A stretch of DNA of 58,096 nucleotides, taken from positions 1-58,096 of the IMG/VR virus record IMGVR_UViG_3300027609_000006; one strand, written 5' to 3'. Source of the stretch: a virus. Positions 21,237 through 57,522 of this stretch are shown in pieces. Positions within the stretch are counted from its first letter, which is position 1. The number at the start of each line of letters is the position of its first letter. The notes beneath the pieces were generated by a model. The model was not told the DNA's origin and made no database searches. It saw nothing but the letters and a program-made list of their open reading frames with translations. A program made the translations under genes and the position numbers.

Positions 21237-21240
21237 ACAA

Positions 21241-31054: not shown

Positions 31055-31055
31055 T

Positions 31056-31201: not shown

Positions 31202-31357
31202 ATGTTCATCACCCGAGTAACGAAGGTCGTCAATCCGCATCATGCATCTGCTCACCGGAGCAGGTCCGTAGCGGAATCAGGGGGAAGTCCGTCTTTCTCG
31301 AACCCAGCGGCTCACATGCTGACGCTGGGATTTATCAATCCCAAAGGGAGGGTCTTA

Positions 31358-32646: not shown

Positions 32647-32782
32647 AATTGATCTGAGAGGTGGGAGCGGTAGTTCTGGGAGGAACGTTTCCACTTTTTG
32701 ATCTTCCCTCGGGTTCGCTTGGGGGATTTGAAAGAGAGGGTGGGGTGACATCACCTCCGAGTGTTACTCCGCCTTCTTTTTG

Positions 32783-32840
32783 TTTTGGCCTCACCGCTAA
32801 TCGATCTTTCGCATCAAGGCGGTGGGTTCGACATGGGAGG
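32783..32840 (+). repeat. SAR arm, F-form
   Basis: TTTTGGCCTCACCGCTAATCG..GGTGGGTTCGACATGGGAGG, 4 nt before GTG 32845. Confidence 0.9.
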
Positions 32841-33218: not shown

Positions 33219-33228
33219 CGATCCAGCG

Positions 33229-33284
33229 GGCGGTGTCGAGTAATCAAAACTTGGCCCTGCCGCGATTCAGAACGAGGCCAAATT
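33229..33284 (+). repeat. SAR arm, R-form
   Basis: GGCGGTGTCGAGTAATC..CAGAACGAGGCCAAATT, then ATG 33285. Confidence 0.75.
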
Positions 33285-33740
33285 ATGAGCACATATCCCA
33301 TCAACCAATTCGCACCAGACTATTTCCAGGGCCTCGCACTGGACCCGAACGCGTCTGTCGATCCCAAACCCTTCAACTACGTCTACAACCCGCCGAACGG
33401 CCAACTTACCGCAGATCAGGAGATCGACGGCGACACGGTCTCGATTCAAACGGACGCGGATTTCTACGCCTTCGGCTGGTACATCTCACTGTTCACTGGC
33501 GCGTTTCAGATCCGCCTCGCGGATTCGACCGGCTACCAGTTGCAAAGCGGCTTCATTAATTCGGGCGCGCTTTCGCAATCTTCAAACCAACCCACGGTGT
33601 TTTCGCCGGCGCATCTGTTCCCGGCTGGATCGAAGATCCTGATCGACATCGAAGATTTGTCGGATGCAACCAATCCGTTGCAAATCGTGTTTCCCGGTGT
33701 CAAGTTGTATAAGATCATTGGAAGGGCGGGGAAGGGGTAG
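33285..33740 (+). CDS. Beta-rich virion-protein candidate
   Basis: ORF track. FYAFGWYISLFTGAFQIRLADSTGYQL resembles the N-terminal half of 37227..38378. Confidence 0.65.
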   Translation: MSTYPINQFAPDYFQGLALDPNASVDPKPFNYVYNPPNGQLTADQEIDGDTVSIQTDADFYAFGWYISLFTGAFQIRLADSTGYQLQSGFINSGALSQSSNQPTVFSPAHLFPAGSKILIDIEDLSDATNPLQIVFPGVKLYKIIGRAGKG

Positions 33741-33750
33741 GAAGGTGTTT

Positions 33751-33808
33751 ATGTTGGCCTCATTCGAAACTGCGGACCTTCAAATCTCTCCCGTTCGACC
33801 AGGAGAGG
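33751..33808 (+). repeat. SAR arm, F-form (translated as an N-terminus)
   Basis: ATGTTGGCCTCATTCGAAAC..CCCGTTCGACCAGGAGAGG. GGAAGGTG lies 3 nt before the ATG. Confidence 0.85.
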
Positions 33809-34488: not shown

Positions 34489-34832
34489 TGCTCACAGATA
34501 ACATTGATGTTTTGGCCTCGCCGGAATCAGGTGCTTCGCGTCCGGTTGAGAATGCTCGACAAGGGGAATTTCCTGACGCCCGTTATCAAGAGCGGTTTCA
34601 CCCTTTCGCCGGCGAATCAGAAAAACCATGCCTGATCTGCGGTGGAGAGCGAAAGCATAAATCTCACTACGATAAAAACGGATTTTTCGGCTATACAACG
34701 CTTGATGCAGCGCTGAATTCCACGGGCAGATGGGTATTCGAGACTAAGAAATATCCAGGACGGCCAAAAAGGGAGACTGTCGAACCCACGGCCTCCGACG
34801 AAGCTGGGGTTACCGGTGAGGCCAAACAATGA
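34488..34832 (+). CDS. Cassette ORF, zinc-ribbon protein
   Basis: TAATG overlap in. F arm near the N-terminus, CLICGGERKHKSH, R arm at the C-terminus (..TGEAKQ, ATGA overlap out). Confidence 0.5.
   Translation: MLTDNIDVLASPESGASRPVENARQGEFPDARYQERFHPFAGESEKPCLICGGERKHKSHYDKNGFFGYTTLDAALNSTGRWVFETKKYPGRPKRETVEPTASDEAGVTGEAKQ
34510..34567 (+). repeat. SAR arm, F-form
   Basis: TTTTGGCCTCGCCGGAATC..GAGAATGCTCGACAAGGGG. Confidence 0.8.
34774..34828 (+). repeat. SAR arm, R-form
   Basis: AGACTGTCGAACCCAC..CCGGTGAGGCCAAACA, then ATG 34829. Confidence 0.9.
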
Positions 34833-35152
34833 GATCGACCCACACCTACGTCACCCTCGAAATCAGCGCCGCCGGATACGATGAGATCGCGAAAAAGCTC
34901 CGAGACGCCGACTACGGCCACTGCTTCAACGCTGCGGGTGAAATCGACATGACAGGAATCGCAGTGATCCGCGCGGCCTGCGTTCGTGGCTGCGCGTTCT
35001 GTTCCTCGGCCGCGACATTCCCCGATGTTGATCTCTGCGATAAGTGCGCCGCCAAGTTCGCCGCCAAATTGAAGTCTCTCCCTGATTGGCCCTTAGCGCG
35101 AACGCAAGGGCAGTCGGCAGAGCACCACACTGAGGGGAGCGCCAAGCCATGA
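34829..35152 (+). CDS. Cys-containing hypothetical protein
   Basis: Contains CAFCSS..CDKCAAKF. C-terminus PLARTQGQSAE..EGSAKP is a d-type R arm. Confidence 0.55.
   Translation: MRSTHTYVTLEISAAGYDEIAKKLRDADYGHCFNAAGEIDMTGIAVIRAACVRGCAFCSSAATFPDVDLCDKCAAKFAAKLKSLPDWPLARTQGQSAEHHTEGSAKP
35090..35148 (+). repeat. SAR arm, R-form, d-type
   Basis: CCCTTAGCGCGAACGCAAG..GAGGGGAGCGCCAAGCC, then ATG 35149. Confidence 0.8.
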
Positions 35153-35376
35153 GTGATTCTGAGGCGGTTCGAACGCTGGAGCGACGTCAAAAGCATTTGA
35201 TCTCTCTTCTTGAGCCAAAACGCGGGTACGATGTGAATTCGCTACATTTCATTCGAGCCGAAGTTGCAGCGTTGTCAGTCGCTCTTTCGGCAATCGAGGA
35301 CCGTCGAAAACTTCTCCTGGTCGGACGCTTTACGCCGCACGAAGCCGCGCTGCCGACGGAGGCCAAAACATCATGA
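35149..35376 (+). CDS. Small hypothetical protein
   Basis: ORF track. Ends ..LLLVGRFTPHEAALPTEAKTS (R arm). Confidence 0.5.
   Translation: MSDSEAVRTLERRQKHLISLLEPKRGYDVNSLHFIRAEVAALSVALSAIEDRRKLLLVGRFTPHEAALPTEAKTS
35311..35372 (+). repeat. SAR arm, R-form (type specimen)
   Basis: CTTCTCCTGGTCGGACGCTTTACGCCGCACGAAGCCGCGCTGCCGACGGAGGCCAAAACATC, then ATG 35373. Confidence 0.95.
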
Positions 35377-36843: not shown

Positions 36844-36974
36844 GACGCATCTTTTTCGGATGCCTCTTCCTTTCTCTCTGCTGGTGCGGACGTGACGGCG
36901 TTCGCAGACAAGAGGGCGCTGTCGAGAAGTCACGAATTGACCAAGCCAAAAATCAGAGCGAGGCCAAAAAATAG
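36840..36974 (+). CDS. 44-aa putative lipoprotein (o-spanin-like, speculative)
   Basis: Hand translation MRRIFFGCLFLSLCWCGRDG..SEAKK. The stop TAG is formed at the junction with the TIR element. Confidence 0.3.
   Translation: MRRIFFGCLFLSLCWCGRDGVRRQEGAVEKSRIDQAKNQSEAKK
36915..36973 (+). repeat. SAR arm, R-form
   Basis: GGCGCTGTCGAGAAG..CAGAGCGAGGCCAAAAAATA. Its A-rich tail is the target of the TIR insertion. Confidence 0.75.
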
Positions 36975-38433: not shown

Positions 38434-38637
38434 ATGTTTCCTCCATTTCTGATCAGTTTAATTGTCGGCTTGGTGGTGGTGGGGTTGGTCTTATGGGTGT
38501 TGGGTCAGATTCCGATTGATCCGGCGATTCAGCGCATTATCCGGGTGGTGATTATCGTTTGCGTTGTTCTTTGGCTGCTGTCGGTTTTGTTGGGATGGGG
38601 TGGGGGATTGGCGTATCCGGCGTATCCGCATCGATAG
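38434..38637 (+). CDS. Small two-TM membrane protein
   Basis: MFPPFLISLIVGLVVVGLVLWVLG..VVIIVCVVLWLLSVLLGW. Confidence 0.55.
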   Translation: MFPPFLISLIVGLVVVGLVLWVLGQIPIDPAIQRIIRVVIIVCVVLWLLSVLLGWGGGLAYPAYPHR

Positions 38638-38801
38638 GTTGGCGCTCCTCACGGATTATCGTTTTGGGCCGACTGCTCATCCGTTCGCGCTAAGGATTCT
38701 CCGCAGTAGAACCGTAAACGCCACGCCAGCTTGGAGCGGAACAACTCCTGGTCGGGCGCTCAAAAGCAGAGCGAAGCCACGCTGCTGACGGAGGCCAAAT
38801 C
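38637..38801 (+). repeat. Chimeric double arm: d-type F-form plus standard R-form, at the convergence point
   Basis: GGTTGGCGCTCCTCACGG..CCGTTCGCGCTAAGGATTC, then CAACTCCTGGTCGGGCGCTC..GACGGAGGCCAAATC. No gene follows. Confidence 0.75.
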
Positions 38802-38809
38802 ATAATCGT

Positions 38810-39079: not shown

Positions 39080-40133
39080 TTTCTTCGGCCTCCTTGGGAT
39101 TGAGTTTTGCAACCCGAGACTTTTCCGCCCGACCAGGAGGAGTACTGGATTGCAACCGCTGTTTAATTGTCTCCAGATCCAACATCGAATGCGGCCTCAT
39201 CGCCGGCAACTTCGTAATCTGTCGGCTAACACCATCCGGAGCCTTGCTGGAATCGTACGTCGTAATGCGCGGGAACCTTCCAGACTCCAAAACTCCCAGT
39301 TCGGGCGCCCAAATCCATCCTTCACCGGTTCGGAGGGAAGCCAGCGATCGCAGCATTTCCCTGCCCTCGTGCGGTTGTGCCCATTCCCCAATCCAATCCT
39401 CGATCGCGCGGCGGTCCTGGGGGGCGATCAGCCGCAATACGATCAGCGTTTCGGACTGAGTAATCGAATCTTTGTGGACTTTCGCCGGGCGTTGGGAAAT
39501 GAGGACAATTCGTAGGCCAATTCCACGGCCGAGACTAACCAGGTTGTTGGCAGCATCGAGCATCCGCACGCCGGCGGCATCCGATGGCCGGGCTTGCGGC
39601 ATGAACAGGTGCGCTTCGTCGATCATTAGCGTGAGTGGGCCGCGGTTCGTCCGCAGCAGAGTTTCCGCGAAATCCGCGAAGAACGTCGTGCGCTCCTTGA
39701 TGGTCATGATGCGGGTGTCTAGCACGGCGGACGTGTCGGTGGTCCCGATGATTTCGCCCAGCGCGGTGCCGTGATGGGGCAGCAGAAATACATCATCCGG
39801 CGGCCGCGCTATCGGATGAGGTAGGCCATGTTCTCGCCCAAACAGATAGATCGGGAATCCCGGCTTCTTTCCAGTCGAATCCGCTCGCAAGCCCCACCAG
39901 ACGCCCGTGGGATCGATCACGCAGAGGCGCCGGTGTTTTGCCAAGAGCAGTTCCGCGAAGCCTTTCGCTGCGTAACTTTTTCCCGAGCCAGTTTTCCCCA
40001 GAATCGCGATATGCTGCTCCAGTAGTTTCATGAACAGTGCGCGCCGCTGGATCGGATTGGCCGGATCTCCACCTTCGGTGAGTGTGGAGACGAGCTGCTG
40101 AGCTGCTCGGTGTAATGAGGAGAGGTCTTTCAT
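39072..40133 (-). CDS. FtsK/HerA-superfamily ATPase (candidate genome-packaging ATPase)
   Basis: Walker A ILGKTGSGKS. Walker B LTLMIDEAHLF. RIVLISQRP. Confidence 0.75.
   Translation of the reverse strand: MKDLSSLHRAAQQLVSTLTEGGDPANPIQRRALFMKLLEQHIAILGKTGSGKSYAAKGFAELLLAKHRRLCVIDPTGVWWGLRADSTGKKPGFPIYLFGREHGLPHPIARPPDDVFLLPHHGTALGEIIGTTDTSAVLDTRIMTIKERTTFFADFAETLLRTNRGPLTLMIDEAHLFMPQARPSDAAGVRMLDAANNLVSLGRGIGLRIVLISQRPAKVHKDSITQSETLIVLRLIAPQDRRAIEDWIGEWAQPHEGREMLRSLASLRTGEGWIWAPELGVLESGRFPRITTYDSSKAPDGVSRQITKLPAMRPHSMLDLETIKQRLQSSTPPGRAEKSRVAKLNPKEAEENA
39084..39142 (-). repeat. SAR arm, R-form
   Basis: Minus strand CTCCTCCTGGTCGGGCGG..CCAAGGAGGCCGAAG. Confidence 0.8.
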
Positions 40134-40136
40134 CCT

Positions 40137-40457
40137 TTATTTGGCCTCGCCGGAGGGTCGGGCTTCGTCGGAAGCTGCACGCTCGACATGGGCGACGATC
40201 TCCCTTTTGGCTATTTCCCGGATGAATCCTGCTTCGTCGCGCCAATGCCCCAATTCCTCACCACATCTAGCACATCGAACATCCACTTGGAATTTGTACC
40301 CGCGAAAGCGATCTACCAGAAGAGCGCCACGATGAAAACAAAAAACGGGCCATCTGAACTCTGAGCGCGCGGCGACAATTTGCACCCCGCCCCTGACGTA
40401 CCCAGCTTTAATATATTCCAAAAACTTGTCAACGGAAGGTTTCTCTGATTGGCTCAT
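40137..40457 (-). CDS. Zinc-ribbon protein inserted between the two ATPase copies
   Basis: GGGAGGA lies 3 nt before the ATG. Contains CARCGEELGH. Ends ..PSGEAK in an R arm. Confidence 0.55.
   Translation of the reverse strand: MSQSEKPSVDKFLEYIKAGYVRGGVQIVAARSEFRWPVFCFHRGALLVDRFRGYKFQVDVRCARCGEELGHWRDEAGFIREIAKREIVAHVERAASDEARPSGEAK
40138..40194 (-). repeat. SAR arm, R-form
   Basis: Minus strand GCCCATGTCGAGCGTGC..CGGCGAGGCCAAATAAAGG, then ATG 40133. Confidence 0.85.
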
Positions 40458-40825
40458 AAATCCTCCCAAGCTGCGACGAGGGTGGCCCACGCGTGCGGAT
40501 CAAGCGGAAGGTCCGCGTGCTCCCCGCCAAAAACGTAGATCGGGAAGGCTGGCCGCTTCCCGGTTTTGTCGGATCGGAGGCCCCACCAGACGCCCGTGGG
40601 GTCCAGGATGCAGACGCGCTGCTTTTTTGCGAGCAATAATTCGGCGAATCCCTTCGCAGTGAAGGTTTTCCCGCAACCTGTTTTTCCCAAAATTGCGATG
40701 TGCTGCTCCAGCAGCTTCATGAACAGCGCGCGCTGCGCGATCGGATTGGCCGGATCTCCACCTTCGGTGAGCGTGGAGACGAGCTGTTGAGCTGCTCGGT
40801 GTAATGAGGAGAGGTCGCCTTTCAT
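40454..40825 (-). CDS. Truncated paralog of the FtsK/HerA ATPase (N-terminal ~105 aa, Walker A only; possibly a pseudogene)
   Basis: MKGDLSSLHRAAQQLVSTLTEGGDPANPI..ILGKTGCGKT..DPTGVWWGL aligns with residues 1-105 of 39072..40133. The first ~90 nt are nearly identical. Confidence 0.6.
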   Translation of the reverse strand: MKGDLSSLHRAAQQLVSTLTEGGDPANPIAQRALFMKLLEQHIAILGKTGCGKTFTAKGFAELLLAKKQRVCILDPTGVWWGLRSDKTGKRPAFPIYVFGGEHADLPLDPHAWATLVAAWEDL

Positions 40826-41241
40826 GGTTTAGCCTCCGTCGGCTTGGGAGTCTTCGCGCGAGGCTTTCGCGCCCGACCAGGAGAGGTTTCTGTCTCCGTC
40901 ATCACTCCTGCCAGGAATCCATTGATCGCCCCGATCATGAACAAACAAGACGCTACTGTATGGATAATCTGAAATGTTTCACCCCACGCCTTTTCAAATC
41001 CCTCCGTCGTCAACTCCTCGCGCTCTGAGTCCACCCAGTCTACGATTATCTTGAGTACATCGTCTGCTGAGCCAATTATGTTTCGCCGGTAGTCCTTGTT
41101 TTTTTGAAGAAACTTCGCGATCCTCTTTACCACGTCTTCATCTAATTCCGCGCCGCAATAACCAGCGTCCCTTAAGGCTTGCTTGAATTCCGGCCTCTCC
41201 TCCACGACCAGGGCGAGTGGATTTCTCTGCGGTTTTTTCAC
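40822..41241 (-). CDS. Hypothetical protein (C-terminal TM)
   Basis: GTG start 3 nt after the AGGAGAAGG of an F arm. Ends ..KPTEAKP. Confidence 0.6.
   Translation of the reverse strand: MKKPQRNPLALVVEERPEFKQALRDAGYCGAELDEDVVKRIAKFLQKNKDYRRNIIGSADDVLKIIVDWVDSEREELTTEGFEKAWGETFQIIHTVASCLFMIGAINGFLAGVMTETETSPGRARKPRAKTPKPTEAKP
40826..40887 (-). repeat. SAR arm, R-form
   Basis: Minus strand CTCTCCTGGTCGGGCGCG..GCCGACGGAGGCTAAACC, then ATG 40825. Confidence 0.9.
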
Positions 41242-41900
41242 AGTCCTTCTCCTGGTCGAACGATCCCGCTCCCAGTTGCAGCACCACCCTGCGATGAGGC
41301 CAAATTACTAAGCCTTTGAATTACCAGCCACACCCCAGCCCTGGACCTCCCCATCATCTTCGCAATCTCCGTGTCTGAAAGCCCCTGGTTGTGCAGATCC
41401 ATAATCTTCAACTCCTCAATCGGCGGGCTAGACTTGGGCCTCCCTAGCCGCACACCCTTCCGCCGCGCGTTGTCCAGGCCGGCCCTGACACGCTCCACGA
41501 TCATTTCCCGCTCGAACTCCGCGAAGGCTCCAACAGTTTGAAAGAAGAACCGGCCCATCGGTGTGGTGGTGTCGATGTCCTGGGTTGCGGAGATGAAATC
41601 GATGCCCAGTGCGCGAAACAACTCCAGGGCTTCCATCAGAGATTGGAGTGATCGGGCGAACCGGTCGAACTTCCAGACCAGCACGACGTCGAAGCGCTTC
41701 TGTTTCGAATCAGCCATTAATCGCTGGTATGCGGGTGCCTGCCCGGCCTTTCGTTTGGAAACCACTCCGGTCACCTGGTCGACGTACTGATTGAAGACTT
41801 CGAAGTTGCGGCGCTGGGAGTAGTCGATCAGGGATGTGATTTGAGAATCCGCTGATTGGTCTGAGGTCGAGACGCGAGCGTAGATCGCCACTTTTTTCAT
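41238..41900 (-). CDS. Small serine recombinase (resolvase/invertase family)
   Basis: VAIYARVSTSDQ, VWKFDRFARS, C-terminal HTH GLSDTEIAKMMGRSRAGV. The last ~20 aa are F-arm translation. Confidence 0.9.
   Translation of the reverse strand: MKKVAIYARVSTSDQSADSQITSLIDYSQRRNFEVFNQYVDQVTGVVSKRKAGQAPAYQRLMADSKQKRFDVVLVWKFDRFARSLQSLMEALELFRALGIDFISATQDIDTTTPMGRFFFQTVGAFAEFEREMIVERVRAGLDNARRKGVRLGRPKSSPPIEELKIMDLHNQGLSDTEIAKMMGRSRAGVWLVIQRLSNLASSQGGAATGSGIVRPGEGL
41245..41306 (-). repeat. SAR arm, F-form
   Basis: Minus strand AATTTGGCCTCATCGCAGG..GATCGTTCGACCAGGAGAAGG. Confidence 0.9.
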
Positions 41901-42151
41901 TTGGCCTCAGTCGATTTCTGGGCGCTGTCGGCTTGCGTGCGCTCGACAGTCGGATCTGGTCTCGCCGCGATCGCTATCAAAGCTGAAATGGTACCGATCC
42001 CAATGTTCACAATGACCGCCTGCAATTGCTTCGCATCGGTTAGCGGACTGGAGATTGTCCCAAACAACATGAGTAAGATTATTGACCCAAAGGCCCACAG
42101 AAAACCGAGAAAGCGCAGCATTTCCGTAATCCATCTTGGCAACAACGTCAC
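41897..42151 (-). CDS. Small multi-TM membrane protein
   Basis: GTG start 3 nt after GGGAGGG. Ends ..KSTEAK. Confidence 0.55.
   Translation of the reverse strand: MTLLPRWITEMLRFLGFLWAFGSIILLMLFGTISSPLTDAKQLQAVIVNIGIGTISALIAIAARPDPTVERTQADSAQKSTEAK
41900..41958 (-). repeat. SAR arm, R-form
   Basis: Minus strand CCAGATCCGACTGTCGAGCGCAC..GACTGAGGCCAA, directly followed by ATG 41900. Confidence 0.85.
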
Positions 42152-42889: not shown

Positions 42890-42951
42890 TCCCTCCCTGT
42901 CGAGCGCACATCCTTGGACGCCCCTCCCAAAATTCCGGCGAGGCCAAAACA
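42890..42951 (-). repeat. SAR arm, F-form
   Basis: Minus strand GTTTTGGCCTCGCCGGAAT..GTGCGCTCGACAGGGAGGG. Confidence 0.85.
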
Positions 42952-43167
42952 TAGTCTGCCACAAAACACCAGTTTTTCAAGGTACTAAAGTACTGTTATT
43001 AAGTACCATTGTTTTCAATCCCTGAAACCGCTAGGATGCAGAGAGGTTTTATAGCAGCCACCCAATGCCCCGAAAAGACCCCTACCGCGAGTTTCTCCGC
43101 AACAAAGGGTAATTATATAGTTGACAAACTTTCAGGAATTCGCTAACCTTGGTTTCGGCGTGACAGG

Positions 43168-44739: not shown

Positions 44740-44968
44740 AAACCATCCTCCGCCACATCTGCCCATTGCAACTTCAGGTGACCGCGCGCGTCAAGCTGAA
44801 AGCGTCCGACCAGGAGAAGTTCTGAATCTTCACCGGAGGTTCTTGGGGGACTGTTGGCACCCGTCCTCCGGCGCGTTTGGTTCGGAGGACCGCGTCGGGA
44901 CCCGATCCAAAACTTTCTCCTGGTCGAACGCTCTGAACTCGATGGCTCACTCTTCCGAATGAGGCTAA
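44740..44968 (-). repeat. Complete SAR hairpin on the minus strand, with a ~95-nt apical insert
   Basis: Minus strand F: GGAATTAGCCTCATTCGG..GAGCGTTCGACCAGGAGAAAG. R: CTTCTCCTGGTCGGACGCTTTC.., with a degenerate 3' end GGCGGAGGATGG. Confidence 0.8.
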
Positions 44969-44971
44969 TTC

Positions 44972-45931
44972 CTACTTCAAAACCGCATTCCCGGTCAACT
45001 TCGCGTTTCCTGTGATGCTTCCAAGTGGGTTTGCCACTCCCAGCGGGATTACCGTCCCCTGCTTTGCCTGCGTTGCCGTGTTCGTCGTGAGGATCGGCGT
45101 TGTCCACGTTGCCCAATTGTCGGTTGAAACGCTGTAGAACAATTGCCCGCCCGAGATGCTGTCAAAATCGAGATCGAGGAAAAGCCTCCAGCTGCTGGTA
45201 CCCGTCCGGACCAGCGCCGGGCCTTCCACGCACCCCTGACTGACCAGCCCGGCCCAATTACCGGTTTTCACGTTGGTGTACGTCCCCAAAAGCGTGGCGC
45301 TGCTCGCATATTGGATGTTGCAGGAGCCGTCCTGGAGTTTGTACCAGAGGTAGTAGGTGCCGCTCAGATAGACCGGGAAAACGTCGATCAGCGTGCTGAC
45401 TCCGGTAACCGTGACGGCCTGCACATTCGACCATGTGGAGAAATCCGCTGCCGTCGGGTGAATCTCAAAAACCTGGAAGTTGCCGCCGCCGTTGGTGCTG
45501 ATCGTCAGAAACACGTGCACCGATGCGAGGCCGGAGCCGTTCGGGTCAATAAACCATTCGGGCGCCCACGCGAAAACGGCGTTTGGAATGCCCATCGTGG
45601 TCAGGTCCAGAGTGGCGTGGGGTGCCCAGTTGATTCCGTCCGTTGAGTGTGACCAGGCGATGACGTAGGAGTTGGGCGATGAGCAACTGTTCGTGTGGAT
45701 CAGATAGTAGAGCCCAGAGTACGTCATGATCGACGGGTCGCGTGGGCCGTTTGTTCCTGGAGGTGGAGTCAGGCAGTCATAGGTAGGGCTTTGGGAGGTC
45801 CAGTTTGTCAAATCCGTTGATGTGAATACTTCAAAGGTGACGTTGGTTCCGGAGTCGGCAAAGGAGACTAATTCGTAGGTCGTTTGGGCGAATAGGGGGA
45901 GTGTGAGGAGCAGCAGGAGGAGGCTTTTCAT
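44972..45931 (-). CDS. Secreted GH43-like five-bladed-propeller glycoside hydrolase
   Basis: Signal peptide MKSLLLLLLTLPLFAQT. GPRDPSIM, WAPEWF, CVEGPAL. Confidence 0.6.
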   Translation of the reverse strand: MKSLLLLLLTLPLFAQTTYELVSFADSGTNVTFEVFTSTDLTNWTSQSPTYDCLTPPPGTNGPRDPSIMTYSGLYYLIHTNSCSSPNSYVIAWSHSTDGINWAPHATLDLTTMGIPNAVFAWAPEWFIDPNGSGLASVHVFLTISTNGGGNFQVFEIHPTAADFSTWSNVQAVTVTGVSTLIDVFPVYLSGTYYLWYKLQDGSCNIQYASSATLLGTYTNVKTGNWAGLVSQGCVEGPALVRTGTSSWRLFLDLDFDSISGGQLFYSVSTDNWATWTTPILTTNTATQAKQGTVIPLGVANPLGSITGNAKLTGNAVLK

Positions 45932-46230
45932 GGTTTGGCCTCCATCGGTTGATCGGCTTCGTGCGGCGTGCCGCGTCCGACCAGGAGGGACTTCAGTAGG
46001 TTCTCGAAGGAAACAAAAGGATGATCACACCAGTAGTCGGCGTCGTGACCAGGCCACAGTTCGGCGCGAAGGCAGAACTTCCCGTATTCGCGTTCATACC
46101 AGAAGCACGGAGGGCCGCCGTTCCTCACCACCTGCCCCCAGTCGGCGGCCTTTGCGGCTACCAGAAGTTGAACGTCTCCTGGTCGAACGCTTTCAGGTGC
46201 GGGTGTCTCGCTGCTCGATGAGGCCGACAT
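45928..46230 (-). CDS. Cassette ORF (100 aa) bounded exactly by an F arm and an R arm
   Basis: GGGAGGA lies 6 nt before ATG 46230. MSASSSS..ESVRPGD is F-arm translation and ..LLVGRGTPHEADQPMEAKP is R-arm translation. Confidence 0.55.
   Translation of the reverse strand: MSASSSSETPAPESVRPGDVQLLVAAKAADWGQVVRNGGPPCFWYEREYGKFCLRAELWPGHDADYWCDHPFVSFENLLKSLLVGRGTPHEADQPMEAKP
45932..45990 (-). repeat. SAR arm, R-form
   Basis: Minus strand CCCTCCTGGTCGGACGCGG..CCGATGGAGGCCAAACC, then ATG 45931. Confidence 0.9.
46173..46230 (-). repeat. SAR arm, F-form (translated)
   Basis: Minus strand ATGTCGGCCTCATCGAGC..AAAGCGTTCGACCAGGAGACG. Confidence 0.9.
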
Positions 46231-46242
46231 AAAAATTCCTCC

Positions 46243-48312: not shown

Positions 48313-48328
48313 GGGGTGTATTTTACAT

Positions 48329-48389
48329 GATTTGGCCTCAAAGAGATAGGGGCTTCGCGCGGGGTTTGAAGCGTTCGACCAGGTGGGGT
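48329..48389 (-). repeat. SAR arm, R-form
   Basis: Minus strand CCCCACCTGGTCGAACGCTTC..CTTTGAGGCCAAATC, then ATGTAA. The real ATG 48312 lies 15 nt later. Confidence 0.8.
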
Positions 48390-48903: not shown

Positions 48904-48918
48904 AGATGATCTATGAAT

Positions 48919-48978
48919 CCTTAGCGCGAACGGAAGTGCAGTCGCCCAAAACACTCAGACCGAGAAGAGCGCCAACAA
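48919..48978 (-). repeat. SAR arm, F-form, d-type
   Basis: Minus strand TTGTTGGCGCTCTTCTCGG..CCGTTCGCGCTAAGGATTC. Its 5' part encodes the peptidase C-terminus. Confidence 0.75.
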
Positions 48979-50076
48979 ATCATCTCCATTCGGTGCTCCC
49001 AATCCTGAACACGCATCCGGTCCTCTTCGTGCCGAGTACGTCCCATTCTCTCCCCGCGTGATGTCCACAAAGCAATTGGGATTCAGAAACAGCTTCGGAG
49101 TCACAAATCCCAGTTTTTTTCCGAACGACGCGAACAACCCCGCATACAGTGGCGCAACCGCGCTCGTGCCCCCGATCACTTGTGACTGACCATAGACCAC
49201 GATTTGATACCCAGTATTGGGATCGGCGTTGGCCGTGACATCGGGAACCATCCGACCCAATCCCGCCGGCGGCTTCGGCGCGCCAATCTGAAAACTCTGC
49301 ACCGGGAAGAACGTTGAGAACCCGCCACCTGTCCCTTCGCCATTAGTCGTTCCCGGATTGTTGTTCCAAACCGTTTCGGAGTTCGTGACCTTCGTGGTTC
49401 CTCCGCAACCAACCACATGGGGACAGGAAGCCGGCGCATCGACGTTTGCCGCATTTGGTCCGCCATCCGAGGAGTCGTTATCCCCCGCCGCCGCGAACAC
49501 CGCCATGCCCGCAGTAACGGCCGCCAGAGCCGCGCTCTCCATCTGCTGGAGCCCTGCGTTGCCCCAATCCGCTTCGTCAGCTCCCCAGGAGATCGAGCAC
49601 ACGTCGCAGCCGTCGTTCATTGCCGCAGTGAGAGCTGGTGCGATGTCTTGCGCCCAGTAGACGCGGATGTTCGCCTGTTTGCCGGTGGCGTGCTGGTAGG
49701 CTGCTGCTGCTACCTGGATGTCCAGCGCCACTTCGAAGTCTGCATCGTTCTGCGGGTTTTGCAGGGAGTTCTGTGTCCCGTCGACGGAGACGTCGGTGAT
49801 GTTGGGGACGGGTTGGTTGATCGATGCGAAGAACGCGGCCATGTCGGATTGGACCCAGCCGCCGCCCAGTTCGATGATCGCGATGGTTGCGCCGCCTGGT
49901 GCTGTGCTCACTGGGAAGTGGTAGGAACCTAAGAGGGTGGGGAGTTTCCAGGGGCCAGTGTGCGGGTTGGTGATGAGACGCTGGACTGCCGCCCATGCGG
50001 AATTAACATGCGGGGCTCTCTTGAAGTATGGATGGCATTTGATCTGCCGTTGGGTGGGAGAGGATTGGGAGTTCAT
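48955..50076 (-). CDS. Sedolisin/kumamolisin-like S53 serine-carboxyl peptidase
   Basis: DFEVALDIQ, CSISWG, IGGTSAVAPLYAG. Confidence 0.75.
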   Translation of the reverse strand: MNSQSSPTQRQIKCHPYFKRAPHVNSAWAAVQRLITNPHTGPWKLPTLLGSYHFPVSTAPGGATIAIIELGGGWVQSDMAAFFASINQPVPNITDVSVDGTQNSLQNPQNDADFEVALDIQVAAAAYQHATGKQANIRVYWAQDIAPALTAAMNDGCDVCSISWGADEADWGNAGLQQMESAALAAVTAGMAVFAAAGDNDSSDGGPNAANVDAPASCPHVVGCGGTTKVTNSETVWNNNPGTTNGEGTGGGFSTFFPVQSFQIGAPKPPAGLGRMVPDVTANADPNTGYQIVVYGQSQVIGGTSAVAPLYAGLFASFGKKLGFVTPKLFLNPNCFVDITRGENGTYSARRGPDACSGLGAPNGDDLLALFSV

Positions 50077-50079
50077 TTT

Positions 50080-50140
50080 TGTTTTGGCCTCATCGGGATT
50101 CGGGATTCACGTCGGATTGGGAGCGTTCGACATTCAGGGT
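50080..50140 (-). repeat. SAR arm, R-form
   Basis: Minus strand CCCTGAATGTCGAACGCTC..CCGATGAGGCCAAAACAAAA, then ATG 50076. Confidence 0.85.
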
Positions 50141-51747: not shown

Positions 51748-51966
51748 TCATTTTGAATCGGCCTCCGTCGGCTTTGTGGCTTCGTGCGGCGTGTCTCGCC
51801 CGACCATGAGGGAATCTTTTTGGGCTTTGAGGAAAGCCACTCCTTCCTCAGCAGTGTAGGGGCACCGGGTAGAGCCGAAGTGGATTCCTCCACAATTAGG
51901 ACAGTCCCCCACCTGGTGGAACGCATTCGACGCCGCGCGAAGAGTCGATCCCGATGAGGCCAACAT
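51748..51966 (-). CDS. Cassette ORF, zinc-ribbon protein
   Basis: MLASSGS..FHQVGD is F-arm translation. Contains CPNCGG..TRC. C-terminus ..MVGRDTPHEATKPTEADSK is R-arm translation. Confidence 0.5.
   Translation of the reverse strand: MLASSGSTLRAASNAFHQVGDCPNCGGIHFGSTRCPYTAEEGVAFLKAQKDSLMVGRDTPHEATKPTEADSK
51755..51815 (-). repeat. SAR arm, R-form
   Basis: Minus strand GATTCCCTCATGGTCGGGCGAG..GCCGACGGAGGCCGATTC. Its tail AAAATGAAA is the TIR target. Confidence 0.85.
51906..51966 (-). repeat. SAR arm, F-form (translated)
   Basis: Minus strand ATGTTGGCCTCATCGGGATCG..AATGCGTTCCACCAGGTGGGGG. Confidence 0.85.
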
Positions 51967-51971
51967 AAAAC

Positions 51972-53320: not shown

Positions 53321-53526
53321 TATGGTTTGGCCTTTTTGGGGTTCGCGCCTTGGACGGATTCTGATCGGACGACACTCGCGGGTTGCGGCTCGGAGAGATA
53401 TAAATCAAGAGCATCCTCCACCACTTCTCTCATGGAGCGCTCATCCGCCCGGGCTCGCGATCTCAGTCGCTCATGAAGTTCGGGGGACAGATTGAACGTC
53501 GCCTGCACGGTGGGTTCTGCTGGCAT
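53320..53526 (-). CDS. Ribbon-helix-helix (CopG/Arc-like) DNA-binding protein
   Basis: TVQATFNLSPELHERLRSRARADERSMREVVEDAL. Confidence 0.6.
   Translation of the reverse strand: MPAEPTVQATFNLSPELHERLRSRARADERSMREVVEDALDLYLSEPQPASVVRSESVQGANPKKAKP
53324..53356 (-). repeat. SAR arm, R-form, short variant
   Basis: Plus strand GGTTTGGCCTTTTTGGGGTTCGCGCCTTGG. AAGGCCAAACCATAATG junction at 53320. Confidence 0.55.
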
Positions 53527-53811: not shown

Positions 53812-53871
53812 CCCCACCTGGTCGAACGCCCTAAGTTGCGCGTAAAAACTCGATCCCGATGAGGCCAAATT
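53812..53871 (-). repeat. SAR arm, F-form
   Basis: Minus strand AATTTGGCCTCATCGGGATCG..GGGCGTTCGACCAGGTGGGG. Confidence 0.9.
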
Positions 53872-53887
53872 ATGCTCTTGCCTAAAT

Positions 53888-53904: not shown

Positions 53905-53932
53905 ATGGGAGTCATGAAAAAGTACACACTTA

Positions 53933-53993
53933 TTTTTTGGCCTCATTCGGCATGTGTTTTCACGCTGCCTTGCTCTCGTTCGACCAGGAGCGG
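53933..53993 (+). repeat. SAR arm, F-form
   Basis: TTTTTTGGCCTCATTCGGC..CTCGTTCGACCAGGAGCGG. Confidence 0.9.
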
Positions 53994-54020: not shown

Positions 54021-54629
54021 ATGATGCCCGGGCCACCGGTGCGCGACTTCGACGCTGACGAAGCGTCCCTGAAAGCGAACATCGCGCTGAACGAACGACT
54101 CGCGGATTCGATCTGGCGCATTCTCCCGGGGTTCGTGACCGACTCGGCAATCCAACGGATGGGCGGGATTGAAGGCATCGCGAATGTGTTGGAGGAATTC
54201 CACCGGACTTTTCGCGACTGGATGTGCCTAGGCCTTGAAGCAGAGCTCGAAACCCTGCGTGAAGAACGTGCCCGGCCGCCCCAAACATGGAAGCCTCCCA
54301 AGCCCACAATCGAGGAACTCGCATCCGCACAGATGAACGTGCAGCGGCTGGAAGACGCAATCGCGGCCATGGACAATTTGGGAGAGAAAGAAAGCTATGC
54401 GTTCGGAGCGTATGTCGCAATGATGCGCCCCATTCTTGAAGGCAGTGTGGATCAGGCCCGGAGTTATCTCAATTCTATGCAAGCGCGAATGGACGACACT
54501 GACGACGAAGCCATCGAAACCTCCGTGTCGAACGGACCAGTGGATGGCGAAGAGAAAAATCGCGATGAGGCCAAAATATGTGCAGCATGCGGACTATCGA
54601 CATCGGAGTGTACTTGCATTCCGTCCTAG
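54021..54629 (+). CDS. Hypothetical acidic protein
   Basis: AGGAGGAG lies 9 nt before ATG 54021. An R arm sits near its 3' end. Confidence 0.6.
   Translation: MMPGPPVRDFDADEASLKANIALNERLADSIWRILPGFVTDSAIQRMGGIEGIANVLEEFHRTFRDWMCLGLEAELETLREERARPPQTWKPPKPTIEELASAQMNVQRLEDAIAAMDNLGEKESYAFGAYVAMMRPILEGSVDQARSYLNSMQARMDDTDDEAIETSVSNGPVDGEEKNRDEAKICAACGLSTSECTCIPS
54521..54577 (+). repeat. SAR arm, R-form (inside the 3' end of an ORF)
   Basis: CTCCGTGTCGAACGGACC..CGCGATGAGGCCAAAAT, followed by an ATG at 54578. Confidence 0.75.
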
Positions 54630-56362: not shown

Positions 56363-56381
56363 CCATTCGCGGGATAGCCCC

Positions 56382-56438
56382 GCCATGTCGAACCCACCAA
56401 ACCTGACGTGAAAACGGATTAGCGGTGAGGCCAAACCA
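56382..56438. repeat. SAR arm at a convergent junction (R-form on the plus strand)
   Basis: CGCCATGTCGAACCCACC..AGCGGTGAGGCCAAACC. Confidence 0.85.
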
Positions 56439-56449
56439 TCCAAAAACGC

Positions 56450-57058
56450 CTACCTGGCAATCGCCCATCCACCCACCAACACGAGAGCCAACCCTCCGAC
56501 CAGCACTCCCCAGTCGGTGTCTGTGACTCCAGAGAAGTCTCCGGATGAGATTGCAGTTCCCAGATCGCTAAACGCCGTGTCCACCGAATCAAACACCCCC
56601 GACGTATCAACCGCCGGCACTCCCGCGGTTGCGTTTCCTGCCAGCGCATCGGCAATTGTGCTGTCTGGTGATACTCCGAGTGCGCTCGCGATCGTGTTGG
56701 CGTAGGCGGTGGGATCGTTCCCCGTCGGATTGCCGTTTGCGTCGGTTGCTGGCGCATACTTCGCCATCATCTGATTGATCGTCAGTCCCTGATTCGCGTA
56801 GGTTTGGATTTGGTTGACCAGCGCCTGTTCGCCGGCATCGTAGGTCGAAAAGGACGCGTAGTAGTATGGTGTACCCTTCATCGCAGGACCTTGTGTTGCT
56901 CCCGATTGCCCCATGTAGATCAGATTTCCCGGGTTGTTATTCGAATATGCCAGTGAGCCGGGATAGTAGCCTTCTACGGTTTGGATGGTCGAGGCGATGG
57001 TGGAGATGGCGGGTGATGTTTGTCCGAATCCTGAGAGGCCGATTAATCCGATGAGCAT
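56450..57058 (-). CDS. Tail-anchored protein with EG..NNPGNL domain (paralog of 10018..10377)
   Basis: N-terminus MLIGLIGLSGFGQT, then VEGYYPGSLAYSNNNPGNL, C-terminus WGVLVGGLALVLVGGWAIAR. Confidence 0.65.
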   Translation of the reverse strand: MLIGLIGLSGFGQTSPAISTIASTIQTVEGYYPGSLAYSNNNPGNLIYMGQSGATQGPAMKGTPYYYASFSTYDAGEQALVNQIQTYANQGLTINQMMAKYAPATDANGNPTGNDPTAYANTIASALGVSPDSTIADALAGNATAGVPAVDTSGVFDSVDTAFSDLGTAISSGDFSGVTDTDWGVLVGGLALVLVGGWAIAR

Positions 57059-57116
57059 GGTTTGGCCTCAGCGGGCAATGTGGCTTCGTGCGTCGTCTCG
57101 CGTTCGACATTCGAAG
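57059..57116 (-). repeat. SAR arm, R-form
   Basis: Minus strand CTTCGAATGTCGAACGCGAG..CCCGCTGAGGCCAAACC, then ATG 57058. It starts 3 nt after the tRNA 3' end. Confidence 0.9.
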
Positions 57117-57268: not shown

Positions 57269-57458
57269 AAGGATGCTGGCATGGCGAGAACGAAACGTCT
57301 ATCCCGTATCAGTCGATTTACGACGCTCATCAGCCGATTGTGACGGGCACCTGGATTTCTATTCAACTGATCGCGGAATCGCTTGTCCCGTTTCTGGACC
57401 CCAACCAGTAGATAATGCTGGATGATGTGGCCTTTAGTGCAGAAGCGAAGCTTTATGC

Positions 57459-57516
57459 CGGCATGTCGAACGCTCCAAACTTCTGACGAAGCGCTCGACT
57501 GCGATGAGGCCGACAT
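57459..57516 (-). repeat. SAR arm, F-form
   Basis: Minus strand ATGTCGGCCTCATCGCAGTCG..GGAGCGTTCGACATGCCGGC. Confidence 0.9.
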
Positions 57517-57522
57517 AAAGAA

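Follow-up and report, generated by a model that had tools for sequence, protein, structure and literature searches.

RESULTS

A repeat of about 60 nt recurs at the gene junctions of a circular virus-like element

The stretch of DNA analyzed here, referred to as the window (58,096 nt), is a circular virus-like element of about 58 kb. Using an iterated nhmmer profile (E < 0.01) on these 58 kb, we found 60 copies of a repeat of about 60 nt, which we call the arm (minus strand, 31; plus strand, 29). Arms show the layout cCTCCTGGTCGAACGC..CGAAG..GAGGCCAAAnCAT(G), and the family, about 60 to 75 nt in length, lies at intercistronic junctions in both orientations. There is about one arm per kb, and arms are present across the whole genome, the conserved gene block included. 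Between neighboring arms, the strand flips in 45 of 57 pairs (binomial p = 1.3e-5). The outer end of the arm carries a palindromic CATG that supplies an ATG. Of 58 arms, 24 have this end at most 12 nt from a called start (mean of 2.9 and maximum of 9 in 2,000 random trials) and 37 have it at most 25 nt from a stop (random mean of 5.8, maximum of 17), and the junction positions matched independent gene calls for the same genome. Identical blocks of 9 to 15 nt are common to all junctions. Three arm subtypes could be distinguished (AA/T, AG/C, and GG/G, at columns 15/16 together with column 52), arm lengths differ by non-multiples of three, and a set of diverged variant arms, the D8 family, reads TAGCGCGAACG..GAGCGCCAAACCATG.

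The arrangement is exemplified by a 100-aa ORF on the minus strand, the type example of a previous sequence-only reading, according to which small ORFs are packaged between an arm with a start (F arm) and an arm with a stop and the next start (R arm).

45928..46230, minus: type-example cargo ORF, 100 aa; about 19 N-terminal aa encoded by the F arm, about 20 C-terminal aa by the R arm
46174..46232, plus: type-example F arm, antisense to local genes, provides the ATG
45930..45989, minus: type-example R arm, ..GGAGGCCAAACCATGA, which is stop, Shine-Dalgarno sequence (SD), and next start

As claimed, this ORF opens at the ATG within the arm 46174-46232 and closes within the arm 45930-45989 (GAG GCC AAA CCA TGA), where its stop shares bases with the ATG that opens the following gene (44972-45931). 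The same layout had been proposed for 13 further intervals. All 14 intervals, the type example included, carry arms of the kind described, and the profile detected an arm at both ends of 10 of the 13. A diverged arm of the D8 family is found at one end of 6100-6543 and of 48329-48978, the F arm of 41897-42180 is weak and partial, and the F arm at 25848 is degenerate and was recognized by eye only. What did not hold throughout is the open frame from the F-arm ATG to the R arm: in 2649-2903, 5240-5536, 48329-48978, and 53324-53871, the cargo ORF starts just past the F arm or stops before the R arm. Cargo ORFs starting just past the F arm use GGAGG from the inner block of the arm.

Many cargo proteins carry a C-terminal ..EAK(P), and the RyR domain assigned to the gene at 1824..2298 was recovered (E = 3.3e-9). 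The cargo had also been described as rich in Cys4-type zinc ribbons, whereas CxxC pairs occur in some cargo proteins and not in most. No match to terminase, portal, or capsid was found among the window proteins. PDB sequence searches and a search for related loci with the 689-aa protein returned no match, and the single-sequence model of a conserved 151-aa protein had a pLDDT of 48.

The other arms are the following, slots being positions between conserved core genes (see below).

182..242, minus: R arm
1326..1386, plus: F arm; inner GGGAG and ATG open 1046-1321
1820..1880, minus: R arm, end of the RyR-domain cassette
2241..2301, plus: F arm, RyR-domain cassette
2651..2710, minus: R arm
2845..2905, plus: F arm
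3428..3487, minus: R arm
3998..4058, plus: F arm
4468..4527, minus: R arm, weak (17 bits)
5238..5298, minus: R arm
5468..5529, plus: F arm
6107..6168, minus: F arm
6481..6545, plus: variant R arm, D8 family
6694..6755, minus: F arm, inside ORF 6540-7022
6961..7020, plus: R arm
8014..8078, plus: variant R arm, D8 family; provides the ATG of the HNH gene
8393..8452, minus: F arm; inner GGGAGG and GTG open 8456-9220
9877..9939, plus: R arm, GGAGG subtype
10386..10446, minus: arm just upstream of minus-strand gene 10018-10377
12649..12709, plus: R arm
12907..12966, minus: F arm; TGGAGG and ATG open 12969-13469
13842..13902, plus: R arm, 3' part degenerate
17825..17971, plus: foldback-only unit (F arm 17825-17886, R arm 17912-17971)
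19726..19787, minus: F arm
19960..20019, plus: R arm
21240..21389, plus: foldback-only unit (F arm 21240-21300, R arm 21329-21389); 51-aa mini-ORF 21233-21388
26275..26335, plus: R arm
27540..27598, minus: F arm
29942..30001, plus: R arm ending the 84-aa cargo 29755-30009 (cargo absent from relatives L042 and L083)
31054..31203, plus: foldback-only unit (F arm 31054-31114, R arm 31143-31203)
32780..32840, minus: F arm, slot E
33227..33286, plus: R arm, slot E
33749..33807, minus: F arm, slot F
34507..34568, minus: F arm, slot G
34771..34830, plus: R arm
35090..35154, plus: variant R arm, D8 family
35312..35371, plus: R arm, GGAGG subtype
36913..36972, plus: R arm
38633..38699, minus: variant arm, D8 family, inverted
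38743..38803, plus: arm, GGAGG subtype, where the plus and minus gene blocks converge
39080..39141, minus: R arm
40136..40195, minus: R arm upstream of the HerA-like ATPase gene
40824..40885, minus: R arm
41247..41308, plus: F arm overlapping the 3' end of the recombinase gene
41896..41955, minus: R arm; SD and start of the recombinase gene
42891..42952, plus: F arm
44758..44818, minus: partial arm, inner half only
44915..44973, plus: F arm
48327..48387, minus: R arm
48918..48982, plus: variant arm, D8 family, in F position
50079..50139, minus: R arm
51753..51968, minus: F-R pair 95 nt apart (R 51753-51812, F 51908-51968); 72-aa CxxC ORF
53322..53381, minus: R arm
53813..53873, plus: F arm at divergent switch
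53932..53992, minus: F arm at divergent switch
54519..54579, plus: R arm
56379..56439, plus: R arm
57057..57116, minus: R arm
57457..57518, plus: F arm

Arms offer an open frame and restart signals in either orientation

Each arm offers about 55 nt free of stop codons in either orientation, and it could be entered by read-through from the upstream ORF or at the ATG of the outer-end CATG. In R arms, the reading frame is GAG GCC AAA in 42 of 57 cases (19 expected with equal frame use), and the stop falls 9 to 18 nt past the GAGG; the frame preference of F arms is weaker (25 of 50). An SD and the start of an ORF of at least 40 codons follow 20 of 31 R arms and 11 of 27 F arms, the SD being GAGG (outer block) in R arms and GGAG(G) (inner block) in F arms. 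This start lies 4 to 11 nt past the arm-end SD and often overlaps the stop of the read-through ORF (ATGA, GTGA), and the R-arm motif sits 7 to 11 nt from starts. Since an entry point, an open frame, and a 3' SD are available in either orientation, arms appear, judging from the nucleotide sequence, to chain genes by translational coupling: we infer that ribosomes translate the arm and that translation of the next gene would be restarted there.

One arm block reads as S-W-S-G or as L-V-G-R, the same nucleotides being conserved across orientations and frames. The conserved blocks (GGTCGAACGC, GCCAAA) are longer than an SD needs to be and are equally conserved in the orientation in which no SD is used; a further constraint, either pairing or a binding factor, thus remains.

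F-R pairs without cargo, previously described as hairpin-only elements, are uniform foldback units of about 150 nt. The 18 units found in the window and its relatives have terminal inverted repeats, are open on both strands, and show an F-R gap of 25 to 29 nt in 13 cases. Their order in the gene sense is always F (GTTCGAC type) and then R (GTCGGGC..GGAGG type), the two arms being diverged, distinct subtypes. Each unit encodes a mini-ORF of about 50 codons, coupled to its neighbors by ATGA or TAATG overlaps; a protein search with the 51-aa mini-ORF gave matches in two clusters only.

Arms delimit variable slots in related genomes

In related contigs, the slot between given conserved core genes was found to be empty, to contain only a foldback unit, or to harbor different small ORFs. 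In slot C, L042 and L083 have no insert, L029 has a solo R arm, and the window has cargo and an R arm. Slot D shows a clean presence/absence of 150 nt between stop and start, and slots F and G have orthologous F arms followed by unrelated cargo. The foldback unit 31054..31203 has orthologous units in L042 and L153 and none in L029. In the slots inspected, genome-to-genome homology ends within about 10 nt of the arm ends, the breakpoints of slots C, D, F, and G being located there, and 21 of 98 blastn alignment ends fall near arms (10.3 ± 3.0 expected). With arms masked, W1386, W48397, and the N-terminal domain of W34829 were found in different arm-flanked slots in different genomes. Arm-delimited slots, swapped cargo, and relocated families are all in agreement with the modular gene shuffling suggested previously. 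In L153 (11368-11640), a different slot seemed to carry a homologue of the type-example cargo; it was discarded as evidence for relocation because the similarity is confined to the arm-encoded termini.

Enrichment of variable genes within F..R intervals was only loose: conserved genes make up 4 of the 11 that follow F arms versus 18 of the 28 that follow R arms, which is a trend only (p = 0.16), and certain variable genes lie away from any arm. Synteny maps showed no relative with inverted cargo. No exchange event was observed directly, and the only near-identical genomes available are 100% identical, showing no variation.

The distribution of arms is patchy, closer relatives being entirely devoid of them while more distant ones have them. 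Relatives with 61 to 70% identity in core protein 31948 have no arms, and the same arm consensus is found in genomes that are only 28 to 43% identical in core proteins. Ga0187803_10000040, Ga0335073_10000430, and Ga0214473_10000882 are among the arm-less relatives. A pattern scan of 185,579 species genomes did not detect the arm as a multicopy element, giving only chance single matches. The exception is a contig of 3.8 kb (L122) that carries three arms and was binned in a Bryobacteraceae MAG, a hint at a host in the Acidobacteriota. Derivation of the repeat from a host genome was rejected, matches in host genomes being single and at chance level.

A selfish MITE or foldback transposon could also give rise to such a pattern. 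An F-R unit of about 150 nt would enter junctions with a transposase acting in trans and without benefit to the virus, cargo-bearing versions being captures or composite elements, and it would be tolerated because it supplies its own start, open frame, and SD. This would account for uniform, discrete 150-nt units with long terminal inverted repeats, for their clean presence/absence between stop and start, and for a single consensus that is patchy across lineages; in addition, both strands are open, as in the translated Rickettsia palindromic elements (PMC10969869). We nevertheless consider it unlikely. Comparing the empty and filled states of slots C and D revealed no target-site duplication (sequences only about 75% identical), no transposase is encoded in the window (no Y1 transposase match was found either), and multicopy occurrence in species-representative genomes was not seen. 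Furthermore, foldbacks have one fixed gene-relative orientation, with F and R diverged into subtypes, and the arm blocks stay conserved where core genes have diverged to 65 to 80% nucleotide identity, which implies long-term selection. Finally, about one arm per kb is far above the 0.18 per kb of MITE-positive viral sequences (PMC11602168).

F and R arms are complementary without partner specificity

RNAalifold on 58 arms gave no pairs within a single arm, only arm pairs being able to fold, and Rfam at gathering thresholds gave no match in the window except tRNA. Watson-Crick covariation within the arm was absent; the strongest covariation (columns 15/16 versus 52) is non-Watson-Crick and reflects the subtypes. 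The flanks of a cassette had been described as inverted repeats of each other. They are indeed inverted arms, but without partner-specific matching, any F arm being equally complementary to any R arm at about -50 kcal/mol. Coevolution of partner arms was rejected, the duplex energy being -52.7 kcal/mol for partners versus -50.6 kcal/mol for all pairs (p = 0.23), and partner-arm identity percentiles scatter around the median. Strand asymmetry (G-U versus A-C) of the kind that would signal selection at the RNA level was not seen, the means being -50.6 kcal/mol for sense and -51.8 kcal/mol for antisense. A scan of 17001-37000 for sigma-70 promoters gave 6 sites (9.1 expected), none consistently placed in arms, and no site resembling an intrinsic terminator coincides with any arm.

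These data bear on the view of arms as RNA regulators, in which an F arm would pair with the next R arm in the polycistronic mRNA, inner block with inner and outer with outer, hiding SDs and start or creating stems for RNase III; ribosome read-through would unmask the signals, and cassette variability would be a by-product. In line with this, every F/R combination pairs at about the same energy, the SDs of the cargo and of the downstream gene both lie within the paired blocks, the foldback unit 21230-21395 is markedly stable as RNA (-63.8 kcal/mol, z = -3.4; as DNA, z is only -1.8), and RNase III cuts the mRNA of Correia elements at inverted repeats (PMC10969869). Against it, non-partner arms are equally complementary, no compensatory change was seen in the variable middle of the arm, and the sense strand is not more stable than the antisense strand. 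Pairing would moreover have to bridge up to 2.3 kb, and single arms are structureless and without Rfam match. We rate such a role as quite improbable.

The window encodes a serine recombinase and a Ref-like nuclease

Two genes had been overlooked in the sequence-only reading.

41238..41900, minus: small serine recombinase (resolvase/invertase type, C-terminal HTH)
8073..8459, plus: HNH (His-Me finger) nuclease, DUF968/Ref-like, candidate recombination-enhancing factor

The first (Resolvase domain, E = 1.6e-39; PHROG "DNA invertase", E = 5.5e-51) corrects the statement that no integrase accompanies the cassettes. However, homologues are also found in L157 and L158, both arm-less, so that the recombinase probably has nothing to do with the arms. 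No tyrosine recombinase was found when all called proteins were scanned against Pfam and PHROG. Among solved structures, P1 Ref (3PLW) comes closest to the fold of the HNH nuclease (probability 0.99, E = 0.03), and homologues at least 60% identical sit in arm-bearing contigs, co-occurrence having been scored in the arm-bearing genomes examined. Ref cleaves RecA-made D-loops and raises recombination (PMC4330346, PMC3973344).

A resolvase/invertase-type enzyme together with inverted repeats that flank short segments in alternating orientation recalls a shufflon, in which the recombinase would flip F..R segments and thereby toggle small genes. This is very improbable: arm-less relatives carry the recombinase too, no relative shows inverted cargo, the genes in the segments point one way only, the arm sequences have no dyad-symmetric core typical of hix/gix sites, and sixty sites would be expected to scramble the genome. 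Least probable of all are arm-encoded peptide tags at the N terminus (M..LAS..VRPGE) and C terminus (VE..EA..EAKP) that the small proteins would have in common, serving for instance virion incorporation or degradation, which would fit the frame preference, strong in R arms and weaker in F arms, and the ..EAK(P) ends of many cargo proteins, but not nucleotides conserved in both orientations and different frames, arm lengths changing by non-multiples of three, or F arms outside the cargo ORF in many cassettes.

DISCUSSION

With about equal belief and doubt, we favor the reading that arms are translatable junction modules, usable in either orientation, and that they spread and recombine much as PeSLs or MITEs do. 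Two inverted arms form a foldback of about 150 nt between core genes, with accessory ORFs at its center. Because blocks of 9 to 15 nt are identical at all junctions, recombination between arms could insert, delete, or swap F..R content; recombination or template switching would take place between arms of coinfecting or concatemeric genomes, and any such exchange would regenerate intact stop, SD, and start signals. Since F and R are inverted, recombination within a single cassette inverts rather than excises it, so that turnover would need two intermolecular exchanges. The arm family may have spread across virus lineages like a MITE or foldback element, and the Ref-like HNH nuclease of arm-bearing genomes may, more speculatively, stimulate the exchanges.

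More tentatively, arms might be an undescribed mobile element for coupled viral operons that also serves as a landing pad for small genes via nuclease-stimulated exchange. Each foldback half would then work either way as entry, open frame, SD, and start, and, its halves being readable both ways, the element could be inserted between coupled genes without polar effects. Small genes would be copied in by homology-directed exchange, stimulated by the RecA-dependent Ref-like HNH nuclease. If true, this would be a virus-borne, recombinase-free analogue of an integron, spread over a whole genome.

Whichever way an arm points, the design of the junction would keep translational coupling. If arm exchange were confirmed, it would provide a testable model of how viruses other than the model ones shuffle their modules. 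Accessory genes could then be sought in metagenomic contigs by a simple rule, namely, to search between inverted arms, and the arm itself would be a compact natural part of about 60 nt for joining two cistrons whichever way it is placed.

Several known repeats share properties with the arms. Transcribed or translated prokaryotic MITEs include the Rickettsia palindromic elements, Correia repeat-enclosed elements, and ERIC (reviewed in PMC10969869), and MITEs have been surveyed in viruses (PMC11602168). Like MITEs, foldbacks are palindromic units of about 150 nt with many copies and presence/absence polymorphism; like the exceptional Rickettsia elements, which are not noncoding, arms are compatible with reading frames, and like Correia and ERIC elements, they give RNA hairpins within mRNAs. 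However, no cognate transposase, host copies, or target duplication was found for arms, their gene-relative orientation is fixed, and they provide the SD, stop, and start of their neighbors. In addition, arms show a preferred reading frame, foldback units carry coupled mini-ORFs, cargo ORFs lie at the center of the palindrome, and arm density is about five times the average of MITE-positive viral sequences. REP/BIME sequences with RAYT are imperfect palindromes of about 35 nt outside genes that come with the RAYT transposase, whereas arms are unstructured and overlap ORFs.

The start-associated sequences (SAS/ESAS) of Cluster K mycobacteriophages (Pope et al. 2011, PMC3203893) are likewise a phage-specific repeat with an SD-like core a few bases upstream of many starts. 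Host genomes have no copies of SAS, and their function is unproven and thought to be translational; about half of the copies are accompanied by an inverted repeat. SAS are 13-bp asymmetric motifs in one orientation, 3 to 7 bp upstream of starts, with 11 to 19 copies confined to the nonstructural half. Arms, by contrast, measure about 60 nt, occur in both orientations (29 plus, 31 minus), are putatively translated, and bracket variable genes.

Integron cassettes are promoterless, small, co-oriented ORFs separated by imperfect inverted-repeat attC structures. The cargo similarly differs at the same position here, and the attC core sites, RYYYAAC/GTTRRRY, are matched at 6 of 7 positions by the inner block GTCGAAC/GTTCGAC. 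Yet GTTCGAC departs from GTTRRRY, and its place is toward the loop of the foldback, facing the cargo, and not at the base of the hairpin. Integrons have one attC hairpin 3' of each cassette, while the cargo described here is flanked by two arms. The window has neither an IntI-type tyrosine recombinase nor attI or Pc, and its cassettes are dispersed between core genes rather than joined in one array. The analogy with integrons drawn previously thus breaks down on recombinase type and site geometry.

The other analogy drawn was with the PeSLs, the promoter-early stem-loops of T4-type phages (Arbiol et al. 2010, PMC2839356; Comeau et al. 2014, PMC4122927). A similar motif has been reported upstream of ORFs in the haloarchaeal virus HGTV-1 (PMC3950731). 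In both PeSLs and arms, a conserved junction motif is present in dozens of copies, and its 3' end supplies the SD and start codon for the gene that follows. Both are associated with small genes whose function is unknown and with insertions, deletions, and replacements between related genomes, and modular shuffling by recombination between copies has been proposed. However, PeSLs are intergenic and co-oriented with genes and comprise a sigma-70 promoter and a terminator stem-loop, while arms have neither promoter nor terminator, lie largely within reading frames, alternate in inverted orientation, and occur genome-wide. Recombination within one cassette would also invert it and release no mini-circle. 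The comparison therefore fails on promoter, terminator, and repeat orientation. To our knowledge, the mechanism by which bacterial viruses gain and lose small genes is understood in very few cases, mainly the PeSLs of T4-like phages. Arms would represent a second, structurally different case with a clear anatomy, in which one repeat family occupies about 60 junctions and empty, foldback-only, and filled states of the same slots are found in related genomes.

Repeat arms at gene junctions

An iterated nhmmer profile (E<0.01) recovered 60 copies of the ~60-nt arm in the window (minus strand, 31; plus strand, 29), or about one per kb; a diverged variant (D8 and its inverted copy I2) contributed five more. 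The canonical consensus reads cCTCCTGGTCGAACGC - ~12 nt - (GA)CGCGAAG - ~14 nt - CCGATGAGGCCAAAnCAT(G), with a weakly conserved AAAAC directly 5' of it. For 24 of 58 arms, no more than 12 nt separated the outer (CATG) end from a called start, where random placement averaged 2.9; for 37 of 58, no more than 25 nt separated it from a stop (5.8 at random). The start and stop calls of a second, independent gene caller coincided with these junctions. Furthermore, arm strand alternated in 45 of 57 neighbor pairs (p = 1.3e-5), with similar alternation in relatives (e.g., 28/31).

The sequence-only reading had described small ORFs packaged as cassettes between inverted F and R arms. Its type example was confirmed: a minus-strand, 100-codon ORF opens at 46230 with ATG TCG GCC TCA TCG and ends with CTC CTG GTC GGA CGC ... 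GAG GCC AAA CCA TGA at 45928, where the ATG of the next gene overlaps the stop. All 14 intervals named in that reading end in arms, but two do so through the variant arm, and in two others the F arm is weak or degenerate. The RyR domain assigned to one of them was recovered (PF02026, E = 3.3e-9) in the arm-flanked small ORF 1834-2259 on the minus strand.

Arms can be read in both orientations

We termed arms pointing with the local genes R and those pointing against them F. In the window and four relatives, 42 of 57 R arms use the frame GAG GCC AAA (19 expected under equal frame use). A stop lies 9 to 18 nt past GAGG, usually in a CCA TGA that shares bases with the next ATG, and in 20 of 31 R arms a start 4 to 11 nt beyond GAGG leads into an ORF of 40 codons or more. 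The inner block of F arms, when reverse complemented, reads GACCAGGAG(G) or GACAGGGAGG and is a Shine-Dalgarno (SD) sequence. In 11 of 27 F arms, a start 4 to 10 nt 3' of it likewise leads into an ORF of 40 codons or more; in others, the ORF begins at the ATG of the palindromic outer-end CATG and runs through the arm. Both orientations thus have an anti-SD-like CCTC(C) at the beginning and an SD plus start at the end. By sequence, then, these modules are translated and provide the gene junction with a stop, an SD, and a start in either orientation, and they may couple translation of consecutive cistrons.

Because the same nucleotides are kept in both orientations and in differing frames, and because arm lengths differ by non-multiples of three, selection acts on the nucleic acid and not on a peptide. 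Blocks past the SD cores (GGTCGAACGC, GCCAAA) were equally conserved in the orientation in which they have no translational role. F:R pairing, whether in RNA or in single-stranded DNA, might account for this additional conservation, as might a binding factor.

Foldback units and their cargo

We found 23 F..R pairs, enclosing 27 to 2342 nt. In the window and relatives, 18 pairs had a gap of at most 120 nt, which measured 25 to 29 nt in 13 of them. These short-gap pairs form a uniform unit of ~150 nt (foldback) that is open on both strands. The units align as one family, the F half always being CGTTCGACCAGGAG and the R half CTCCTGGTCGGGCGC...CCGACGGAGGCCAAA, and keep one constant orientation relative to genes. 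Every unit encodes a mini-ORF of ~50 codons that begins in an overlap with the preceding stop (ATGA, TAATG) and terminates right beside the start of the following gene; a 51-aa ORF within one cargo-less pair was also called by the independent gene caller. The unit at 21230-21395 gave an RNA fold of -63.8 kcal/mol (z = -3.4) and a DNA fold with z = -1.8. By sequence, pairs of arms form foldbacks that lie between core genes, and small variable ORFs occupy the foldback center.

Single arms had no conserved structure. Base pairing within the arm was rejected, as the strongest covariation marks three subtypes and not base pairs. Complementarity between partner arms of a cassette did not exceed that of random F/R pairs, and the sense arm strand had no stability advantage over the antisense one. 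No sigma-70-like promoters were detected at arms in a scan of 17001-37000, nor did any intrinsic terminator coincide with an arm, and Rfam gave no match for them.

Slots differ between related genomes

Contigs at 65 to 80% nucleotide identity have the core genes of 19 to 38 kb in common, in unchanged order. Arm-marked slots separate these genes and occur in three states.

Slots in the window and related contigs (L handles)
Slot C, 29.7-30.0 kb: core genes overlap with no insert in L042 and L083; solo R arm after a 17-nt remnant in L029; 84-aa ORF plus R arm in the window
Slot D, 31.05-31.2 kb: orthologous foldback in the window, L042, and L153; stop and start 11 nt apart in L029
Slot F: orthologous F arm in L152, L153, and L042 up to GGAGGGGTTTGTGA; beyond it, three unrelated cargos
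Slot G: F arm common to the window and L152/L067 (contig A), diverging directly past GCTCGACA; foldback alone in L042

Overall, 21 of 98 blastn alignment ends fell in arms or within 20 nt of them, versus 10.3 ± 3.0 expected. With arms masked, three gene families were also found at different places. The W1386 family lies at 1.4 kb in the window; in arm-bearing genomes A and B, it is absent from the syntenic place and adjoins the recombinase gene. The W48397 family is placed, in A, between the ATPase gene and the recombinase gene. The N-terminal domain of W34829 (86 to 89% identical) occupies slot F, slot G, or both. Relocation of the type-example cargo was dropped, its similarity being arm encoded. 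Genes after F arms were less conserved than those after R arms only as a trend (p = 0.16), and some variable genes have no arm close by. We propose that the blocks common to arms could serve as crossover points for swapping the intervening segment.

Distribution of the arms

Four relatives have no arms: block counts are at background and core genes abut directly. Their proteins are 61 to 70% (31948), 40 to 66% (33285), and 54 to 58% (28050) identical to those of the window. Genomes of 41 to 46 kb whose core proteins are only 28 to 43% identical carry the same arm consensus at 0.5 to 1 per kb. Since arms are absent in closer and present in more distant genomes, their presence does not track structural-gene similarity, which argues for spread between lineages or repeated complete loss; in our proposed mechanism, the family would have spread horizontally. 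The arm-less contig L157 has its own short repeat, TCATTTCGCCTCCGGCGATCGGCGGA, in four copies (17067-17092, 17621-17646, 17860-17885, and 18741-18766), reading ..GGAGGCGAAATGA, an SD plus start, on the other strand. That lineage may therefore have a start-associated repeat that differs from the arms and is shorter.

In 185,579 species genomes, the specific arm pattern gave single, chance-level matches only, except in a 3.8-kb contig (L122) from a Bryobacteraceae (Acidobacteriota) MAG bin, which has three arms including an F-R pair:
378-436, arm
2337-2394, arm
2439-2481, arm
L122 proteins had no similarity to window proteins, and its binning is a weak hint of a Bryobacteraceae host.

Genome context

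The window ends are identical (exact 99-nt direct repeat, 1-99 and 57998-58096), indicating that the assembly is circular, at about 58 kb (about 57,997 bp). Independent 58,117-nt assemblies of the same genome occur in other samples (100% identity across 20 kb). Genes lie in five blocks (minus, plus, minus, plus, minus), and few proteins have recognizable domains: a HerA/FtsK-type ATPase, glycosyltransferases, a subtilase, a GH43 domain, DnaJ, DUF192, and a D12-class (Dam-type) N6-adenine DNA methyltransferase. No terminase, portal, or capsid protein was recognized among them; IMG/VR catalogues relatives of the window as viral contigs. Proteins at 17808-25041 and 31358-31891 have a high content of Cys, Ser, Thr, and Ala, and many of them end in a hydrophobic segment and a basic tail. 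Considered alongside the HerA-type ATPase and the absence of hallmark genes of tailed phages, they hint at a membrane-containing, non-tailed virion, of which the conserved 151-aa (33285-33740) and 232-aa (31948-32646) proteins could be capsid proteins.

Several further repeats were observed. A separate 123-aa ORF (40454-40825) in the adjoining arm-flanked slot duplicates the N-terminal part (~100 aa) of the HerA-like ATPase (39072-40133) at 83% protein identity, with a 299-nt direct repeat (39829-40127 and 40518-40816, 79% identity). Tandem 21-nt repeats, TCGGCAGAATCTCCCGGTACG, at 10943-11016 (wider, 10842-11025; 3.5 near-exact copies plus degenerate ones) lie in or near a gap separating gene calls of opposite orientation; they could be iterons, an origin, or a regulatory site. 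ORF 50684-51712 contains a 42-nt tandem repeat (51161-51310; 3.6 copies, 86% matches) 3' of the stretch matching the D12 methyltransferase domain (residues 9-83). Neighboring small genes 3644-3994 and 4059-4469 have an 87% identical 112-nt 3' segment (3638-3749 and 4053-4164) encoding the same C-terminal domain (..RLHYR.GV.RGTGGMIVSGGGAWWGEKII). A minus-strand tRNA-Thr (CGU) at 57120-57194 overlaps the unselected ORF 57043-57516, a few bases from the arm at 57057-57116.

Candidate enzymes

41238-41900, minus strand, small serine recombinase
8073-8459, plus strand, HNH nuclease between two arms

The first of these contradicts the earlier view that no integrase accompanies the cassettes. It is of the resolvase/invertase type (Resolvase, E = 1.6e-39, plus a C-terminal HTH; PHROG "DNA invertase," E = 5.5e-51), and its final codons are encoded by an F arm. 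It is probably not arm specific, because homologues (34 to 38% identity) occur in arm-less relatives.

The second matches PHROG HNH families (DUF968 weakly). The closest fold to its AlphaFold model (pLDDT 78) is, over the full length, phage P1 Ref (3PLW; probability 0.99, E = 0.03), which cuts RecA-made D-loops and is named for enhancing recombination (PMC4330346, PMC3973344). Homologues with at least 60% identity occur in arm-bearing contigs B, C, D, E, L185, L186, and L187; identity is 60 to 78% in all arm-bearing contigs with the region available, although other common proteins are only 28 to 43% identical. A 52% homologue occurs in an unrelated Mu/HK97-like phage without arms. Contigs matching the arm-less relatives in length are listed in none of the 40 homologue clusters. 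This co-occurrence with arms is suggestive only, and one may speculate that the Ref-like nuclease drives exchanges at arms.

Relation to known systems

In function, the arms are nearest to PeSL, to which the sequence-only reading had likened them, but they lack its defining promoter and terminator and are unlike it in how they are oriented and in being coding. Their form recalls translated palindromic MITEs, for example the Rickettsia palindromic elements, but no transposase or host copies were found, and no target duplication was visible in the slot C and D comparisons, where the sequences are about 75% identical. With SAS/ESAS they have in common an SD-containing, phage-specific repeat at starts. 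The arm-flanked units are not integron cassettes, the other likeness that had been drawn. Given these likenesses and differences, we place the arms in none of the PeSL, MITE, SAS/ESAS, or integron families; they would be a further form of repeat-mediated modular shuffling.
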